The notes beneath the pieces are model-generated. The model saw only the letters and a list, made by a program, of their open reading frames with translations. It had not been told where the DNA came from and did no database searches. Of a DNA stretch of 33,259 nt, positions 1-32,576 are shown in pieces. Numbering within the stretch: the first letter of the stretch is position 1; every line of letters starts with the position of its first letter. Origin of the DNA: a virus; IMG/VR virus record IMGVR_UViG_3300045988_058170, positions 1 to 33,259 of that record. One strand, given 5' to 3'. The translations under genes and the position numbers were made by a program.

Positions 1-99
1 AGCACGTAGCCGTTGGTGCGTGCGACGGTGGATGCGGCCTTGGTGGCCGGGTTGATGCCGAAGATGGGGGCGAAGTCGAGGGCGCGGCTGATAGCACGG
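1..99. repeat. Terminal direct repeat: bases 1-99 identical to 33161-33259 (circular closure or assembly overlap)
   Basis: Read directly: agcacgtagccgttggtgcg...ggctgatagcacgg occurs at both ends. The capsid reading frame is continuous through the overlap. Confidence 0.95.
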
Positions 100-527
100 T
101 TCACGTACGTGCGGTACTGGTCGAGGATACCGGCCTGATACGGCTGTGCGAGGATGCTCTGAAGCATGGTCTGCGGGGAGCCGGCTCGGAAGGTGGCGTC
201 GGTCGGATTGTATGCGCCGTCAACGCCGAACAGTTGGAGGAACTTCTTCGGGAAACGGTAGGAGATGTAGAAGGTGATGGGGTTGATGGTCACGACGCCG
301 TTGGTCGCGTCGTTGGACTTCTTCTTCTTTTCGGCTTCGGTTTCGCCGGCGGCTCCTTCGCCGAAGATGCCCATTTCGCCGGAGAAGTCGATGGTCTGCA
401 TCTGCGTGCCGATGAGGTCGATTGGAGTGCTGTTGGAAATCTTGGCGATGGCTCCGGCTGCGGGCTGGTCGGAAATCAGCTTGCGGTCTACGAAGCCGGG
501 CTTCAGTTCGATTGTCGCTAGGGACAT
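1..527 (-). CDS. Major capsid protein (HK97-fold type), N-terminal part; the gene crosses the window junction and continues 33160->32644
   Basis: ATG at 527-525 (MSLATIELKPGFVDRK...) with GAAAGG 5 nt upstream. The frame runs off base 1 and is in phase with ORF 32644..33165 via the 99-bp overlap (...ARTNGYV/LEHAGD...). Joined length is 1044 nt, 347 aa. It is absent from the ORF track because it has no stop on this side. Confidence 0.85.
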   Translation of the reverse strand, partial: MSLATIELKPGFVDRKLISDQPAAGAIAKISNSTPIDLIGTQMQTIDFSGEMGIFGEGAAGETEAEKKKKSNDATNGVVTINPITFYISYRFPKKFLQLFGVDGAYNPTDATFRAGSPQTMLQSILAQPYQAGILDQYRTYVNRAISRALDFAPIFGINPATKAASTVARTNGYV

Positions 528-705
528 GACTGCCTTTCATGGTAGGGGAATGGTGTCGGCCTTCTGCATTGCGGCCCCGACTCGGCCTCTACCACGATTG
601 TTTCCGGCTGTGTGCGCCTCAACCCCACGGTCACCCAGTGGGTATGCCCATGCATTGTTTAACGACCGTGCTGGGCGGTTCAGGTCCGTACATTCTAGGG
701 GAGAC

Positions 706-749
706 GGTCGGGCTTGGCATGATAACGAAGCTTCGAATGCCTGCCGACC
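706..749. repeat. 44-nt imperfect palindrome (ggtcgg..ggcat..cgaagcttcg..atgcc..ccgacc) in the HNH-capsid gap
   Basis: Arms 706-711/744-749 and 716-720/737-741 flank the perfect 10-bp palindrome 726-735. It would lie in the capsid 5' leader. Could be an RNA stem-loop or a packaging/cos-related site. Confidence 0.5.
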
Positions 750-762
750 ATCTCCAAGACAT

Positions 763-791
763 AGCATAACACCCCGTCTGACTTTCGTCAA
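763..791 (-). promoter_or_regulatory. Putative sigma70-like promoter for the capsid/tail genes
   Basis: Minus strand reads TTGACG (791-786), a 17-nt spacer, then TATGCT (768-763). It sits in the only sizeable gap of the late operon. Confidence 0.35.
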
Positions 792-799
792 ACGGGGTG
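770..799 (-). terminator. 8-bp hairpin downstream of HNH (possible attenuator/terminator)
   Basis: caccccgt (770-777) pairs with acggggtg (792-799) around a 14-nt loop. On the minus strand it is followed by GTTATGCTATGTCTT. It overlaps the putative -35. Confidence 0.3.
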
Positions 800-857
800 C
801 TGTGCAAACCAGAATCACAAGAGAGGAGCTGCACATTGCTGCGCAACAGTCATCATT

Positions 858-1142
858 CTACCACCTTCTCGTCGCAGTTCGCGTTCGGCGTGTCGCGGGA
901 CTCGCGATATGGTCCGACTTGGCCCGGTTGCACTGCATGTGCGCGGGAACGAGATTGTCCATCCTGTCGCTTCCGCCAGCAGCGCGCGGTATCACATGGT
1001 CTGCGGTGAACGCCAACGGATGCGCCGCGTTATGGCCCCAATAGAATGGTTCGCCGCAATAATAGCATGGCGCTCCAGTACGCTTGGTGCGCTCGCGGAG
1101 GATGGTGCGGTTGCGATGGTAGAGTCCAGTATCCTTACCCAT
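858..1142 (-). CDS. HNH endonuclease (terminase-associated type)
   Basis: CYYCGEPF...ADHVIPRAAGGSDRMDNLVPAHMQCNRAKSD is an H-N-H motif with flanking Cys pairs. Start is ATG 1142 (GGAGGTG upstream) or TTG 1151. The gene abuts the TerL stop. Confidence 0.85.
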   Translation of the reverse strand: MGKDTGLYHRNRTILRERTKRTGAPCYYCGEPFYWGHNAAHPLAFTADHVIPRAAGGSDRMDNLVPAHMQCNRAKSDHIASPATRRTRTATRRW

Positions 1143-1143
1143 T

Positions 1144-2592
1144 TCAGGCAATCACCTCCCTGACCTTGCGTTCCTTCGGACGGTTGACGCCACGATACCA
1201 TGCGGCGATGCTGACGCCCTTCAAACCCGCCGTGGTTTCCGTCTTGCGTATCGGCGCGAACTTCCACTGGTCATCCGAACCGGATTTGAGCTTCTGCGCG
1301 TTCTGCACTTCGGCGGTCAGTTGTGGGTTGTTCGTATGTTTGAACCGTCCCTCGTTCAACAGGTCGAGGAAGCCCTGCTGTGAGGCGAGGAATTCGGTTC
1401 CGGTCAACTGGATGACGTTCAATCCGCGTGGCAGCATGTCCCTTATCGGATTGTTCAAACCTCCCACATCCAAGATGAGCGTGGTCTTGCGCGGGCGCGT
1501 CTTCAATTCGTCCGTGACCCACTGCCATGATTCGGTGGTGGGGCGTTCGTCCACGATTTCGCCGATGATGTATGCCCACTTGTCGTAATGCTGCGAGCCG
1601 ACCGTGACCTCTTCGGTACTGGCGGCGACGCTGAGGGCGAGCGTGCTGGTCGCCGGGTCGAAGGTGAGCGCGTAGACGAGCGTATCACGGTCGTGCTGGA
1701 GGTCGGAGTAGGCGCTGTCCCACAGGTCCATGGGGATTGCGGGCGGAATGCTGTCGGCCCACCATAGGCCCAAGTCTTGGATGCGGAAGTCTATGAGACC
1801 GTCCGCGCCGCCCTGTTTGGCTATGGCAACGTCGGTGAGGAACGCTTCGCGTGGAATCACGTCCGGGTAGAGTGGGTTGGTGAGCGCCCACAACTGTTCG
1901 TCTTCGATGTCCGCCGTCTCGTCGTCGATGCCGTAGCGCACCGCATACGACATGTCGTCGTTCTCCGCATTGTCTAGGAACGTGTTGAACGTGTCTCCGA
2001 TGGACGAAGGGAGGAACGGGGTGCCCGTGTAGATTATCATGGCCATGCGGCGCGTCTTCAACGTCTTGGAAATCATCGCCTCGTATTCAGAGCGGAGTTC
2101 CTGCGCCTCATCAAAGATGACCAAATCGAACGTTCCACCCATTCCAGCGGAAGCGCTCTTGCGGGAGCGGAACCGGACGAACGCGCCGTTCCTCAACTGT
2201 AGGCGCTCGCGGCCCATGGTGGTGCTGAAGTGCGTGACTTCGGCTTTCAGTTCGGGGTTCGAGTCGATGGCGTCTTTCAAATCCTCCATGATTTTGTTGG
2301 CGGCTATCTGCTCGTGCGCGGTGACGAGCACGTTGAGTCCGAGCACGAACAAATAGTAGAGGATTGGGGCGGTGAGGATTTTCGTCTTGCCGTTCTGACG
2401 CGGCATGTTCAACGCGACACGCTTGTACTTCCACGTGCCGTCCTTCTTGCGTTGGAAGGCGTTGTTGAGGAATTCGACTTGGAACGGGAGGATTGCGTTT
2501 CCACGACCCCAGTTCACGTATTCCGCGGCCATGATTGCCACGTCGGATGTGGGACGTACGTTCGCCCTCCAGTTTGGATTCTTCACCAGCAT
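1144..2592 (-). CDS. terL: Terminase large subunit (Terminase_1 / HK97-like type)
   Basis: Walker A NMPRQNGKTK and Walker B FDLVIFDEAQE, followed by a C-terminal nuclease-like half. 482 aa. AGGTGG SD. Confidence 0.92.
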   Translation of the reverse strand: MLVKNPNWRANVRPTSDVAIMAAEYVNWGRGNAILPFQVEFLNNAFQRKKDGTWKYKRVALNMPRQNGKTKILTAPILYYLFVLGLNVLVTAHEQIAANKIMEDLKDAIDSNPELKAEVTHFSTTMGRERLQLRNGAFVRFRSRKSASAGMGGTFDLVIFDEAQELRSEYEAMISKTLKTRRMAMIIYTGTPFLPSSIGDTFNTFLDNAENDDMSYAVRYGIDDETADIEDEQLWALTNPLYPDVIPREAFLTDVAIAKQGGADGLIDFRIQDLGLWWADSIPPAIPMDLWDSAYSDLQHDRDTLVYALTFDPATSTLALSVAASTEEVTVGSQHYDKWAYIIGEIVDERPTTESWQWVTDELKTRPRKTTLILDVGGLNNPIRDMLPRGLNVIQLTGTEFLASQQGFLDLLNEGRFKHTNNPQLTAEVQNAQKLKSGSDDQWKFAPIRKTETTAGLKGVSIAAWYRGVNRPKERKVREVIA

Positions 2593-2593
2593 G

Positions 2594-3460
2594 TCATACC
2601 ACCTGATACTTCTTGAGGATGTCGGCGTCTGCGCCCTTGCCGTAGGCGTCGCCGATGGATGCGATGTCCTGCGCGGTCTGGGGGAACGTCAGCTCGTAGT
2701 CCAATGTGACGCCCAATGGTTCGAATACCGCGTTCAAATCCTGTTTGATGATGTAGGTGCGGCTGACGAAGCTTTCACGGTTGGACACCAATGATTGGGT
2801 TGTCGCTCCGAGCGTGTCGAGAATCTGCGCGTCCTGTGGGGGGAGTCCGGTTTCCATCTGAAAGCTCAATGCCGTGTTTTGCAGGAGGGTTTTGAGCTGT
2901 CCGTTGTCCCATTGGCTGAGTCGTTTGACTTCCGGTCGAACGATGGTGTCGTGGTCGTCGTTGGCGTCGAATTTCGTCCAGTTGGATGGATTCTTGTTCG
3001 GGTCGGCTTTGATTACCACGTCGGGGGACGTGCCTACCACGACCGGCTCGGGCAGCATGAGATGTTCGAGGTTTTGAGAGATGAGGCCTTCGATGACCAT
3101 GGCGCGCTGCGCCAACAGTACTGCTTGGTCGGTGACGGGCGCGTGGCTGAGGGTGAGGCATCGAAGGTTCTCGTCGATTTCCTCCGCGTTCTCGTCATAG
3201 CAGCGACCGTCCAAGCCTACTGCTGCTACTTTGTCCAATGGCAGGTCTGCCGTGGGGAGGTAGTCGGCGCTGAGCGGGTCGCCGTCCTGCATGAGGAAGT
3301 AGGAGTTTACGCCGCCGATGGCTTTGGAGAGGATGCGGGTGAAGCTGCGTTTGCCGACCGCGCTGAAGTTGCTGACTCGCACGCGCATGGAGTATGCGTT
3401 TTTAACGAGTTCTATCCATGGGAATGAGATGGTCTGTTCGTCCACGATGGTGAGTGTCAT
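2594..3460 (-). CDS. Hypothetical 288-aa protein immediately upstream of TerL (portal candidate by position and size only)
   Basis: ATGA overlap with the upstream ORF and only 1 nt before the TerL start. No motif recognised. Confidence 0.6.
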   Translation of the reverse strand: MTLTIVDEQTISFPWIELVKNAYSMRVRVSNFSAVGKRSFTRILSKAIGGVNSYFLMQDGDPLSADYLPTADLPLDKVAAVGLDGRCYDENAEEIDENLRCLTLSHAPVTDQAVLLAQRAMVIEGLISQNLEHLMLPEPVVVGTSPDVVIKADPNKNPSNWTKFDANDDHDTIVRPEVKRLSQWDNGQLKTLLQNTALSFQMETGLPPQDAQILDTLGATTQSLVSNRESFVSRTYIIKQDLNAVFEPLGVTLDYELTFPQTAQDIASIGDAYGKGADADILKKYQVV

Positions 3461-3768
3461 GAGCGTTTCGCTTCCTTCGCTACGAGTTTCTGCAAGGTGG
3501 TTTTGGGTGTTTTGGCGGCGGTTGTCCGGCTTTTGTGCGAATCGACTTTTACCGCTTCGTCGAAGTTTTTGGTCATGGTCATGAGCAGCTGCATGAAGCT
3601 GACGTAGTTTTTCTGCGCGTTGATGGCCATGCTCATGTTGTATTCGCGGTCATCGTCGGCTGTTTCGGCTTTTCGCGCGTACTCTTCCATGTCTGAGTAG
3701 GCTTTGTCGATGAGTCCGTTGACCTGTTCCATGCGGCTTGAGAGGGCTTCTTCAGTCTTCCCTGCCAT
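3457..3768 (-). CDS. Hypothetical 103-aa protein (helical, basic C-terminus)
   Basis: Strong SD (AAGGAGG, 4 nt before ATG 3768). ATGA coupling to the next gene. Confidence 0.65.
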   Translation of the reverse strand: MAGKTEEALSSRMEQVNGLIDKAYSDMEEYARKAETADDDREYNMSMAINAQKNYVSFMQLLMTMTKNFDEAVKVDSHKSRTTAAKTPKTTLQKLVAKEAKRS

Positions 3769-30595: not shown

Positions 30596-30946
30596 TCAGT
30601 GAAGACCCAACGCCTTGTTGATGTCTTCAGTGTTCATCGAATCGAGTTCGTAATCCTCCTCCTTCTTCTTCTTCTGGTTTTCCGGCAACACGCTTTTCGG
30701 TTTCACCCCCTTGCCGGAATAGGGGGCGAGTGTCGACTGTTGGATGATGTCGAGCAGCCGGGCGGTAGCGCCGAACGTGCCTATGAGTTTCGCCCGTTCC
30801 AATATGGAGTATTGGCGTGGGCTACCGTATTGGCTTGCGAAATCGGCCAAGATTTGGCTGTCCCATTTGTCTGGGTTTATCGCATAGGTCAGTCTTTCGA
30901 CTGTAACTCCGTAATCGTCGGCAATTTTCCCGACAAGTACTCCCAT
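30596..30946 (-). CDS. Tail assembly chaperone, T part (expressed as a G-T fusion by -1 frameshift)
   Basis: Overlaps the G ORF by 58 nt in the -1 frame. The slippery site lies within the overlap. Confidence 0.8.
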   Translation of the reverse strand: MGVLVGKIADDYGVTVERLTYAINPDKWDSQILADFASQYGSPRQYSILERAKLIGTFGATARLLDIIQQSTLAPYSGKGVKPKSVLPENQKKKKEEDYELDSMNTEDINKALGLH

Positions 30947-31173
30947 GCGTCGATGATGTCATCGTCGAATGCGGCCATGACAGCCTCGTACTTGTCTTCC
31001 TTCAGGACGCCTTGCATGAGCTTGTCGATAAGCCACACGGTTTCCATGCCGTCTTCCACGCCTTCCGAATGGATGGCCTGCTGGAATTTGCGGTTGCGGA
31101 GGAGTTTCGCATAGGCGTCTGCCCATCCGTCGTTGAAGTCTTCGATGGTGATGGTTGGCTTGCGTTTTGCCAT
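30889..31173 (-). CDS. Tail assembly chaperone G (94 aa)
   Basis: Lies between the tail tube genes and the tape measure. GAAAGGAAA SD. Confidence 0.8.
   Translation of the reverse strand: MAKRKPTITIEDFNDGWADAYAKLLRNRKFQQAIHSEGVEDGMETVWLIDKLMQGVLKEDKYEAVMAAFDDDIIDAWEYLSGKLPTITELQSKD
30925..30931 (-). promoter_or_regulatory. -1 programmed frameshift heptamer G GGA AAA (G/GT)
   Basis: The zero frame reads TC[G GGA AAA] TTG. After the slip, GGG AAA ATT GCC matches the 116-aa ORF frame (VGKIADD). Confidence 0.8.
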
Positions 31174-31196: not shown

Positions 31197-31225
31197 TATA
31201 TAAGAATACCCCACATGTCGGTCAA
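31197..31225 (-). promoter_or_regulatory. Candidate internal promoter ahead of G/GT and the tape measure
   Basis: Minus strand reads TTGACC (31225-31220), 17 nt, TATATA (31202-31197). It lies 24 nt upstream of ATG 31173. Confidence 0.4.
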
Positions 31226-31244
31226 GATTGAACGGCATGTGGGG
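31209..31244 (-). terminator. 9-bp hairpin after the CBM ORF (terminator-like)
   Basis: ccccacatg (31209-31217) pairs with catgtgggg (31236-31244). On the minus strand it is followed by UAUUCUUAUAUA. Confidence 0.5.
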
Positions 31245-31263
31245 CATGGTTCCTGCGTGGCTG

Positions 31264-31986
31264 TCACGGTGAGACAAGCGACATAGAGTCGAAGTGGAAA
31301 GGTATTCTCTTGTCTAGAACCGTGCAAACAACCTGAACCGTCACTGGCGAATTTCCTGTCTTGAACATACCAGAAGCCGCTTCCCAACCGTTAGTTGTGG
31401 ATTGCGTGCTTGGCGACATTTTGAACAGGACGGACTGCGTGTTGATGTCTTTTATCTCGACGTTAGCAACCTGTGGCGGAGTCAACCAAGAGCGCATGTA
31501 GTACGAAAGCCTTAAATCTTGGTTCGGCGGAATGACGAACGGGTCCGAAGACGCACTATTCGGAAGTTTATCTCCGATACTAAGACACCTTCCACCTTCG
31601 TGTGTGTCACCTCTATCAACAACGCATGTCGCTGGGGTCCACTTCGCCACTCCTTCCTCGAAGTTGCCGTTCGGAACAAGATTGTCAGTAAACTCTCCAA
31701 AATCGTAAGCACCATCCGAATTCAAAACGCTGGAATACCGCGTCGCGCTCCAGATTAGCTGGCCAACTGTAGGATTCTTCAGAATCTTCAGGTCGAACCT
31801 CGTGCCCTTAGGCAGGGTGAGGATGCCAGTGTACAAGCCATCCTCACCATTCGTCATCTGCACTCCTGAAGCTCTAGTCCAAGGGTCTTTCTGTCCCCAG
31901 TCGCCGATAGCCCACATGATGCCGCCAGACGGTACGGTTGTGTCACGAACAGTGACCGTAAGGCTCCGATTTGGAGAGGCTACGCT
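31264..31986 (-). CDS. -1 frame extension of the major tail protein carrying CBM20-like and CBM4_9-like carbohydrate-binding modules
   Basis: The frame is open from the slip site (AGC 31986) through ATG 31917 to 31264. SLTVTVRDTTVPSGGIMWAIGDWGQKDPW..M..GEDGLYTGILTLPKGTRFDLKIL is starch-binding-module-like. LVPNGNFEEGVAKW...FHFDSMSLV is CBM4_9-like. There is no SD before ATG 31917. Confidence 0.7.
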   Translation of the reverse strand, partial: SVASPNRSLTVTVRDTTVPSGGIMWAIGDWGQKDPWTRASGVQMTNGEDGLYTGILTLPKGTRFDLKILKNPTVGQLIWSATRYSSVLNSDGAYDFGEFTDNLVPNGNFEEGVAKWTPATCVVDRGDTHEGGRCLSIGDKLPNSASSDPFVIPPNQDLRLSYYMRSWLTPPQVANVEIKDINTQSVLFKMSPSTQSTTNGWEAASGMFKTGNSPVTVQVVCTVLDKRIPFHFDSMSLVSP

Positions 31987-32576
31987 TTTGGGATGGTGAT
32001 GTACTGGGTCTGAGCAGGCTGGGAGGCGGTCGGATAGGCGTTGATGGTGAACTCGAAGTTCACGAGGGCGGTATGCACGTGGCTGATATCGCCGGTGATG
32101 AGGAACGTCGCATCGGGCATCACGTTGCGGCGCTTGCGGCCACCCTTCAGCATCTCGTCGATGATGATGACATGATGTTCAAGGTCTCCGGCCTGCTCCT
32201 TGACGGTGATGGTGCCATCCGCCGTCGAGGATGCGGCTTTTACCGTCACGTTGGAGGAGCCGTAAGCGACCTTGAGCAGGTCTTCGTTCAACGCTTCGAT
32301 GCACGTGCCGGTCCACGTCTTGGAGAACGTCGGGTCGGCCTGTGCGACGGTATCGCCGCCTGCGGCCACGATGTCATCGCCTGCGGTGAGGGATGCTGGT
32401 TCGGTCAGACCGTCTTCGGACAGGTAGCCGAGGCCGACGAATGCCGCGTCCAGTTCGGTGGTGGCGTCGGTTGGAATGGTGGTGCCCAGTGGGGCGACCC
32501 AAATATAGCCGGACTTGTTTGCACTTGCGCCCGGCTTCGAGAATGTCACGTTTGCGGAAGACTGCTTTGCGCCCAT
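31980..32576 (-). CDS. Major tail (tube) protein, TP901-1/phi13-like
   Basis: ...AFVGLGYLSEDGLTE... 198 aa. Position after the capsid gene. AAAGGAA SD. Confidence 0.75.
   Translation of the reverse strand: MGAKQSSANVTFSKPGASANKSGYIWVAPLGTTIPTDATTELDAAFVGLGYLSEDGLTEPASLTAGDDIVAAGGDTVAQADPTFSKTWTGTCIEALNEDLLKVAYGSSNVTVKAASSTADGTITVKEQAGDLEHHVIIIDEMLKGGRKRRNVMPDATFLITGDISHVHTALVNFEFTINAYPTASQPAQTQYITIPKA
31986..31992 (-). promoter_or_regulatory. -1 programmed frameshift heptamer C CCA AAA, two codons before the tail-protein stop
   Basis: The zero frame reads AT[C CCA AAA] GCG TAG. The -1 frame reads CCC AAA AGC GTA GCC..., continuous with the 217-aa ORF. Hairpins lie downstream (CTCC-AAATC-GGAG; TACGGTCAC-TGTTC-GTGAC-ACAA-CCGTA). 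Confidence 0.7.

Follow-up and report, generated by a model that had tools for sequence, protein, structure and literature searches.

The window analysed here (the whole 33,259 nucleotides of IMG/VR virus record IMGVR_UViG_3300045988_058170, positions 1 to 33,259, 33.3 kb) is a nearly complete siphophage genome. Its gene for the tail-tube protein most likely yields a second, longer product, in which a programmed -1 frameshift at the end of the gene fuses the tube subunit to two predicted carbohydrate-binding modules (CBMs), and this product would form a decoration of the tail. The features involved are the following (aa, amino acids; ORF, open reading frame).

31980-32576, minus strand: major tail (tail-tube) protein gene, 198 aa, 0 frame, with its stop TAG at 31982-31980.
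31986-31992, minus strand: slippery heptamer C CCA AAA in the X XXY YYZ phase, the first C being the third position of a codon.
31918-31986, minus strand: first 23 codons of the -1 frame (SVASPNRSLTVTVRDTTVPSGGI), predicted linker and beta-strand 1 of domain 1, in what appears to be an intergenic gap.
31690-31971, minus strand: domain 1 (residues 6-99 of the extension), predicted CBM20-type starch-binding-like beta-sandwich, from an AlphaFold2 model and PDB fold matches.
31915-31917, minus strand: ATG called as the start of a 217-aa ORF, probably the internal Met24 of the extension, within strand 2 of the CBM20 fold.
31267-31689, minus strand: domain 2 (residues 100-240), predicted CBM4/16/22-type jelly roll (Pfam clan of CBM_4_9), followed by the stop codon at 31266-31264.

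The tube gene ends in ATC CCA AAA GCG TAG, and C CCA AAA is the sole in-phase X XXY YYZ heptamer within its 198 codons. After a slip of one base the frame reads AGC GTA GCC TCT..., remains open for 23 codons over the 62-nucleotide gap (31979-31918) and enters the 217-aa ORF (ATG 31917, stop 31266-31264), giving 240 open codons beyond the tube stop. The predicted products are the tube protein alone (198 aa, 20.7 kDa) and a -1 fusion of 437 aa and 46.7 kDa. Both codons of the slip site are minority codons in the structural genes of this phage, CCA accounting for 22% of the Pro codons and AAA for 29% of the Lys codons. No ATG, GTG or TTG is present among the 87 codons of the -1 frame that separate the upstream stop (32181-32179) from ATG 31917. 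The upstream gene itself was identified as a tail-tube gene by its match to phrog_117 (E = 3.9e-35), by Pfam PF25681 (Phage_TTP_17, 39 bits against a cut-off of 27) and by its place in a canonical gene order described below. The original prediction, made from the letters of the window alone, had claimed this identity, the in-phase heptamer and the 23-codon open frame leading into the 217-aa ORF, and all three are borne out, the heptamer being also unique in the gene. The long reading frame of its predicted fusion is present as well, although the length of about 436 aa given for it has to be corrected to 437 aa.

Relatives of this region were gathered from three distinct GenBank genomes and 52 IMG/VR loci. 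Of 48 related junctions, about 47 have CCCAAAA followed by G(C/A/T)(G/C)TAR in the corresponding place. The heptamer is fixed in these despite its minority codons, in a stretch where third positions vary at 21 of the last 30 tube codons. The original prediction had named a lack of conservation of the heptamer or of the open -1 frame as something that would speak against it; both turned out to be conserved in roughly 50 related genomes.

The coding potential of the gap was examined in 37 distinct clean junctions, over the 22 codons that follow the heptamer. None of the 37 has a stop in the -1 frame, while each of the other two frames is interrupted in all 37, and no indels were found downstream of the heptamer. 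Codon differences downstream are far more often synonymous when read in the -1 frame (synonymous to non-synonymous 2538:3224) than in the other frames (603:5304 and 977:4980). Furthermore, the periodicity of variation changes frame at the slip site: variability by codon position is 0.027, 0.026 and 0.111 upstream, counted in the 0 frame, and 0.084, 0.108 and 0.208 downstream, counted in the -1 frame. This frame-specific signature, together with the open frame, argues that the gap is translated in the -1 frame, with the start at the heptamer or very near it. Reading along the -1 frame of the relatives, the earliest canonical start codon is in most cases a GTG at codon 18, already past the conserved LTVTV strand.

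Of the alternatives, the one that survives best, improbable as we consider it, is an ordinary separate gene. Translation would start at ATG 31917 (or at the GTG of codon 18 in relatives) and produce a free carbohydrate-binding protein of ~24 kDa, attached non-covalently to the tail or acting elsewhere. This is how all gene callers and the GenBank records annotate the region, the ATG at Met24 is present in nearly all relatives, and initiation in the absence of a Shine-Dalgarno (SD) sequence occurs in Actinobacteria. ATG 31917 indeed lacks an SD sequence, as the original prediction had stated: the best duplex with the anti-SD is -4.8 kcal/mol, whereas the tube, chaperone and tape-measure genes each carry GAAAGGAA, with -9.6 to -9.8 kcal/mol (-9.8 for the tube gene). 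The ATG lies 62 nucleotides beyond the tube stop and translational coupling is therefore unlikely. A separate gene would also leave 23 upstream codons with a coding signature, stop-free in all 37 junctions, and since these codons specify strand 1 of domain 1, a protein started at Met24 would miss the edge strand of its fold. In addition, Met24 is replaced by Ile (ATA in place of ATG) in an intact lineage, P0115; the same ATA is found in another locus of this lineage, L042, in which the extension is broken at Tyr52. Finally, a separate gene offers no explanation for the conserved heptamer of minority codons. ATG 31917 is probably merely the internal Met24 of the extension.

To describe the extension, an AlphaFold2 model of its 240 residues was built on 121 sequences. 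The mean pLDDT (predicted local distance difference test) was 92.3, and two beta-domains were evident. Domain 1, with a pLDDT of 93.8 when modelled alone, has a CBM20 fold in these models. Its best 50 fold matches in the PDB are all CBM20, with template modelling (TM) scores of 0.65-0.76 and 97-108 aligned columns for 99 residues, and include beta-amylase, CGTase domain E, glucoamylase, STBD1, laforin and GDE5. In the comparison of profiles with the PDB, the single match below E = 0.1 was again a CBM20 (7czj, E = 0.018). Trp36, Tyr52 and Lys67, all invariant or nearly so, are aligned in 7czj to the Trp of LGNW, the Trp of PTW and the Lys of EWK, respectively; the second Trp of site 1 is opposite a gap. 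Residues 6-14 (NRSLTVTVR; pLDDT 83-91), which form the first strand, are located upstream of Met24.

Outside phages, the nearest relatives found for domain 1 are tandem CBM_20 repeats, which an amylase-like ORF with a CBM26 domain carries at its C-terminus. These repeats score E = 5e-15 to Pfam, and domain 1 shares 28-37% identity with such repeats of Bifidobacterium amylase-like proteins. Some of the alignments begin at residues 1-9 of the extension, ahead of Met24. Thus the first strand of the CBM20-like domain, which the original prediction had placed upstream of the ATG, is recovered both in a high-confidence model and by alignment to the first strand of genuine CBM_20 domains. Domain 1 resembles the CBM20 of amylases over the whole fold and has the GDWGQ..W.RA.G motif in common with the Bifidobacterium repeats; it differs in being part of what is, from its sequence, a predicted virion protein rather than an enzyme, and in a Pfam score below the cut-off. 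Counterparts of the amylase-like ORF are present in a metagenome-assembled genome of B. angulatum and in B. goeldii, and a scan of bacterial genomes with the amylase repeats returned Bifidobacterium amylase-like loci only. The amylase-like ORF itself is found in GenBank MT835768.1 ('UNVERIFIED: Bacteriophage sp.'; our locus L004), where ORF 37-3564 codes for a fragment of 1175 residues with Big_2, CBM26 and two CBM_20 domains and is followed by glycosyltransferase-like genes. This record looks like bacterial (Bifidobacterium-like) DNA mislabelled as phage.

Domain 2 was modelled as a CBM4/16/22-type jelly roll. Foldseek matched it to CBM4-2, CBM16, CBM22 and CBM61 with E values between 6e-8 and 1e-5 and target-normalised TM scores of 0.56-0.73. 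Pfam CBM_4_9 (PF02018) matches 42 of the 121 relatives, the best at E = 4.8e-9, and for several of them PF02018 is also a precomputed annotation. The N-terminal strand motif NLxPNGxFE, NLVPNGNFE in its nearly invariant form, runs through the family, and the domain-2 profile matches the CBM of an alginase (E = 3e-4). Both modules of the original prediction, the CBM20-like and the CBM4_9-like one, therefore reappear in the profile and structure searches.

A number of observations nevertheless count against a functional fusion of this kind, and they concern the domain assignments, the slip site and the integrity of the extension. Regarding the first, the window copy of domain 1 scores only 17.7 bits (E = 0.0031) with Pfam CBM_20 (PF00686), under the cut-off of 23.3; the same family matches 42 of the 121 relatives at E up to 0.01, with 3.7e-4 as the best value. 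For the window's own domain 2 there was no match to Pfam CBM_4_9 at E up to 1. Both calls are weak at the sequence level and rely on predicted folds and on relatives.

Regarding the slip site, the difficulty is the lack of a recognisable stimulator. No stimulatory RNA structure was found at the canonical spacing of 5-9 nucleotides after the heptamer, RNAalifold found no covarying pairs in 23 junctions, and the sequence ahead of the heptamer has no SD-like element. The frameshift sites of Lactobacillus phage A2 have a stem-loop or pseudoknot 8-9 nucleotides downstream, and no such element was found in the window. The original prediction had noted that hairpins follow the slip site. They do, but 26-31 nucleotides on and not at 5-9, and the 106 nucleotides downstream of the heptamer in the window do not exceed shuffled controls in folding stability (z = +1.0), so that these hairpins carry no weight as stimulators. 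The one of the window's clade is the following.

31934-31959, minus strand: local hairpin ACGGUCAC-UGUUC-GUGA-CACAA-CCGU, 26 nucleotides 3' of the heptamer.

The majority clade has a different hairpin of 7 bp (CACCGUA...UACGGUG; alignment columns 39-45 with 54-60, equivalent to 31933-31954 of the window), which begins 31 nucleotides past the heptamer and is swapped for the other local hairpin in the clade of the window. Its conservation is considerable: 93.8% of the cells are paired, double changes occur at 3 pairs, one pair shows a compensatory change from A-U to C-G, and none of 500 shuffles reached its covariation score. However, its spacing is unsuited to a classical frameshift stimulator. 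Another candidate is the hexamer CUCUCC (31973-31978, minus strand, 7 nucleotides 3' of the heptamer), which is almost invariant in the 37 distinct junctions and may be a nucleotide-level signal. It includes a third codon position that stays C although the codon specifies different residues (A, D, S, T, V, I or G), and a TCT codon that is invariant without being preferred. No partner for CUCUCC was found; UCUCCG could pair over a long distance with CGGAGA, but this pairing, considered by eye, was discarded because it was not retained across clades. Given that no stimulator was found, the efficiency of the frameshift is probably low.

Regarding integrity, the extension is interrupted by nonsense mutations or frameshifts in 22 of 47 related contigs (L007, L011, L017, L019, L020, L027-L029, L033, L034, L036, L038, L040, L042-L047, L050, L051 and L053), within about positions 1500-2250 of each locus. 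It must therefore be dispensable, and some members of the clade could be in the process of losing it. Half of the broken copies (11) have in-frame nonsense codons and the other 11 have frameshifts. Many of the lesions change TGG to TAG or TGA at conserved Trp codons. Trp30 is replaced by TAG or TGA, Trp25 by TAG and Tyr52 by TAG, among other sites, and the Trp of the VKWTP motif by TGA twice and by TAG twice. Lesions vary between contigs and are therefore recent and independent, a pattern suggestive of repeated loss of the decoration in nature. In the contigs with a broken extension, the tube gene (197-198 aa) and the gene for tail assembly chaperone G (94 aa) are both intact (Fisher p = 1.9e-8), and the tube gene retains its 197-198 aa in about 44 of the 47 relatives. 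For this reason sequencing error was rejected as the general cause, although some homopolymer indels (for instance in L060) may be such errors. Reassignment of a stop codon was also rejected, because TAG and TGA both occur at the same Trp positions and because Tyr, Gln and Arg codons are hit too.

The lesions raise a second alternative, which we judge to be slightly less probable still than a separate gene. The extension could be a decaying remnant, in which an ancestral in-frame fusion or separate gene was broken by a change of one nucleotide and left an unexpressed pseudogene that has not yet eroded. The concentration of lesions in 22 of 47 extensions, with none in the tube or chaperone G genes, is what would be expected, and so is the composition, since the extension (window 31200-31990) has a G+C content of 51.5% and the neighbouring tube gene 60.6%. 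The divergence of the intact copies points in the opposite direction. Amino acid identity was compared in 21 intact genomes, and synonymous divergence (dS) and the ratio of non-synonymous to synonymous divergence (dN/dS) in 20, with these results.

Tube protein: mean pairwise amino acid identity 92%, dS 0.36, dN/dS 0.135.
Domain 1 (CBM20-like): mean pairwise amino acid identity 70%, dS 0.82, dN/dS 0.25.
Domain 2 (CBM4_9-like): mean pairwise amino acid identity 44% (minimum 30%), dS 1.45, dN/dS 0.40.

Both domains of the intact copies are under purifying selection. Copies that have diverged to 30-44% identity in domain 2 retain the frame, with dN/dS of 0.25-0.40 and a pLDDT above 92, and the heptamer and the exact -1 relation are retained clade-wide, none of which would be expected of a remnant; the lesions, different in each contig, are recent and independent events. 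Domain 2 is the fastest-diverging part of the fusion. The dS of the extension is 2-4 times higher than that of the tube gene and, together with its lower G+C content, suggests a module exchanged horizontally, that is, a CBM cassette that may have been swapped between phage lineages.

One added A would be enough to yield a hard-wired fusion. However, no full-length hard-wired fusion of tube and CBMs was found among 492 relatives of a junction-spanning query, nor among the best 150 matches listed when 1.84 billion representative proteins were searched. Matches in that protein search that seemed to overlap the extension were discarded as unrelated in-frame Big_2, Ig or FN3 tails. Only two hard-wired starts were found, both truncated. 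L060 has one extra A (CCCAAAAA) and then further indels. In L063 (positions 1780-1845; ENA ERZ2436847 NODE_833, 32.6 kb) a deletion of 25 nucleotides removes the tube stop and part of the heptamer, leaving CCCAAAG. The two frames are fused there, with a TGA at Trp25 and the other 219 codons intact and in frame, and the protein (P0278) is found on 4 contigs. Speculatively, this single lineage may use leaky UGA readthrough in place of frameshifting, or it may be a recent knockout of a hard-wired fusion. The weakest alternative, transcriptional slippage, in which RNA polymerase would add one A in some of the mRNAs and create the same fusion, could invoke the A run at the site and the extra A in the genome of L060, but is very improbable, as the run has four A whereas bacterial slippage requires roughly eight or more identical bases (reviewed in PMC5009743), and as the whole in-phase X XXY YYZ is conserved including the CCC, which is relevant only to re-pairing of tRNAs.

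For the frameshift fusion, then, the most likely mechanism is a tandem -1 slip of two tRNAs on C CCA AAA. A minority of the ribosomes that reach the end of the tube message would slip back by one base, tRNA-Pro re-pairing from CCA to CCC and tRNA-Lys from AAA to AAA. They would bypass the TAG located two codons further on and read 240 more codons. The resulting subunit of 437 aa would bear at its C-terminus a short Ser/Pro linker, the CBM20-type module and, distally, the CBM4/16/22-type jelly roll. Long subunits would co-assemble with the 198-aa form, and the tail tube would thereby bear a small number of protruding sugar-binding arms. The number of these arms may be estimated from the tape measure: scaling from lambda, a tape measure of 1339 aa gives about 50 hexameric rings, or about 300 tube subunits. 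Slippage of a few percent would then place roughly 3-15 appendages on each tail. Distant homologues of the tube protein have in-frame Big_2, Ig-like, FN3 or Listeria-Bacteroides-repeat domains at the same C-terminal point, indicating that the tube fold tolerates, and often has, an outward decoration there.

The arms could provide weak, multivalent and reversible adhesion to glycans, and we lean modestly towards a role of this kind. The faster-diverging distal module would probably bind a polysaccharide of the host cell envelope; for the conserved inner module the probable ligand would be an alpha-glucan, for instance starch or something like glycogen. The repeated loss of the extension and its retention under selection are consistent with an appendage that brings a benefit at a cost, is borne only in small amounts and disappears readily. 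A bolder proposal, which we hold as rather unlikely, is that a starch-binding tail of the host-amylase type makes the virions stick to granules of resistant starch or to surfaces coated with alpha-glucan, with the dose of the appendage under strong and fluctuating selection. Such surfaces are the feeding sites of B. adolescentis and B. pseudocatenulatum, and this would be a dietary-particle version of the 'adherence to mucus' of phages. The dose-control side of the proposal draws on the absence of full-length hard-wired fusions, the repeated natural knockouts and the UGA fusion of L063.

Recoded tail proteins of this general architecture are known, and tubes decorated with CBMs by frameshifting are already established in the lactococcal 936 phages. 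In this group (Skunavirus) TpeX is encoded by an ORF directly 3' of the major tail protein gene (mtp) and is made only as a fusion to the major tail protein (MTP) by programmed frameshifting (PMC4759559). The MTP-TpeX fusion, of about 56 kDa, contains a carbohydrate-binding domain and was seen on the tails by immunogold labelling, and 21 of 90 phages have TpeX (PMC4759559). Binding by TpeX extensions is restricted to host strains (PMC6669499). The system proposed here shares with it the accessory ORF after the major tail gene, the carbohydrate-binding cargo (including a Cellulomonas fimi-like CBM hit in TpeX) and a minority subunit that decorates the tail (PMC4759559, PMC6669499), and TpeX is, by this comparison, the closest functional analogue. 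They differ in the recoding event, which in TpeX is a +1 shift at the 'shifty stop' CCC.UAG after an Ig-like adhesin domain, and in the window phage a proposed -1 shift on C CCA AAA right after the tube core. They differ also in the hosts, Lactococcus in one case, and in the other Bifidobacterium phages with a CBM20-like and CBM4_9-like cargo. The extension has no match to a PHROG family at E up to 0.01 and no detectable similarity to TpeX, and its sequence relatives are all unnamed proteins of Bifidobacterium-phage-like contigs. It would on these grounds be an analogue of TpeX by architecture and not a homologue.

In Lactobacillus casei phage A2 and its relatives, a -1 frameshift late in the gene of a major virion protein, close to the 3' end, produces a longer second form (PMC5009743), and the title of Rodriguez et al. 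2005, cited in PMC5221750, refers to such frameshifting for the A2 head and tail proteins. The slippery sequence CCCAAAA itself has been reported for the major head gene of the A2 group (PMC6950654). The A2 extensions have been described as Ig-like (PMC5009743), so that the likeness to the window phage is in the -1 shift near the 3' end, as proposed for the latter, and the difference is in the cargo, here predicted CBM modules. Two forms of the tail-tube protein are also made from one gene by +1 recoding in SPP1 (gp17.1*) and in the Listeria phages A118, A500 and PSA (PMC6669499, PMC5009743). As is proposed here, the longer form adds an outward-facing beta-sandwich domain; in SPP1 and the Listeria phages, however, it comes from a +1 shift and is a single FN3 or Ig domain of ~100 aa with no assigned CBM family, as opposed to a proposed -1 shift and two predicted CBM folds. 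The C-terminal domain of lambda gpV and the T4 protein Hoc are dispensable surface domains that are thought to mediate weak adhesion to glycans (the adherence-to-mucus idea). Ig-like domains on phage structural proteins were reportedly described by Fraser et al. in 2006, as cited in PMC5221750. The domains of gpV and Hoc are Ig-like, in frame and on every subunit, whereas those of the window phage are two CBM folds predicted to be sub-stoichiometric because of recoding.

What is new here is the phage group, gut phages of Bifidobacterium that so far lack an annotation of any tube extension, the tandem CBM20-like and CBM4_9-like cargo, with a CBM20 that resembles those of amylases of the host genus, and the population-level pattern of repeated loss. 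Searching the literature for phage tails with a CBM20, or for frameshifted tail genes of Bifidobacterium phages, gave nothing relevant. Eight Bifidobacterium phages of this clade in GenBank and well over 100 metagenomic relatives carry two 'hypothetical proteins' for what is most likely one recoded tube gene, and the gene callers clip strand 1 of domain 1. Very few virulent phages of Bifidobacterium have been studied, and the CBMs of the tube could show how starch-attached hosts are found and how host range is set. An extension that is broken in about half of the copies yet under purifying selection in the others, and never found fully hard-wired, is a natural system in which to weigh the cost of a decoration against its benefit, and the compact pairs of CBMs could act as probes for surface glycans of Bifidobacterium.

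By its sequence, the window phage is a Bifidobacterium siphophage. It shares 86-87% DNA identity with phages of Bifidobacterium pseudocatenulatum and B. adolescentis isolated from sewage (BP742P1, the BP677P series, BA720P3 and BA746P1). In these GenBank relatives every gene of the tail-tube region is labelled 'hypothetical protein'. A profile search of the contigs of 185,579 species-representative bacterial genomes, limited to the pattern used, found no copy of domain 1 of the extension; the phage clade is thus apparently not present as a prophage in them, which fits a virulent lifestyle. Scans of the window found no tRNA genes and no matches to Rfam families.

The tail module is on the minus strand in the canonical tail order, with the tube gene, the extension, the chaperone G/GT, the 1339-aa tape measure and Dit one after the other. 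Further genes of the module code for a minor tail protein, a fibre with an S74 chaperone domain and a GH25 endolysin. Upstream of the tube gene, a capsid-side gene extends past the end of the window. The extension occupies the place between the tube gene and G/GT, a spot that is normally empty in siphophages. The next locus, between the tube gene and the tape measure gene, is as follows.

30596-31173, minus strand: tail assembly chaperone G (31173-30889, 94 aa) and its -1 product GT (192 aa).

G/GT has an in-phase slip site G GGA AAA at 30931-30925, the T frame is open from 30958, and the GT fusion reads through without a stop. This is the canonical -1 frameshift of the same tail module, next to the one proposed for the tube gene. 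In the GenBank relatives G and T are annotated as two overlapping genes for 'hypothetical proteins'.

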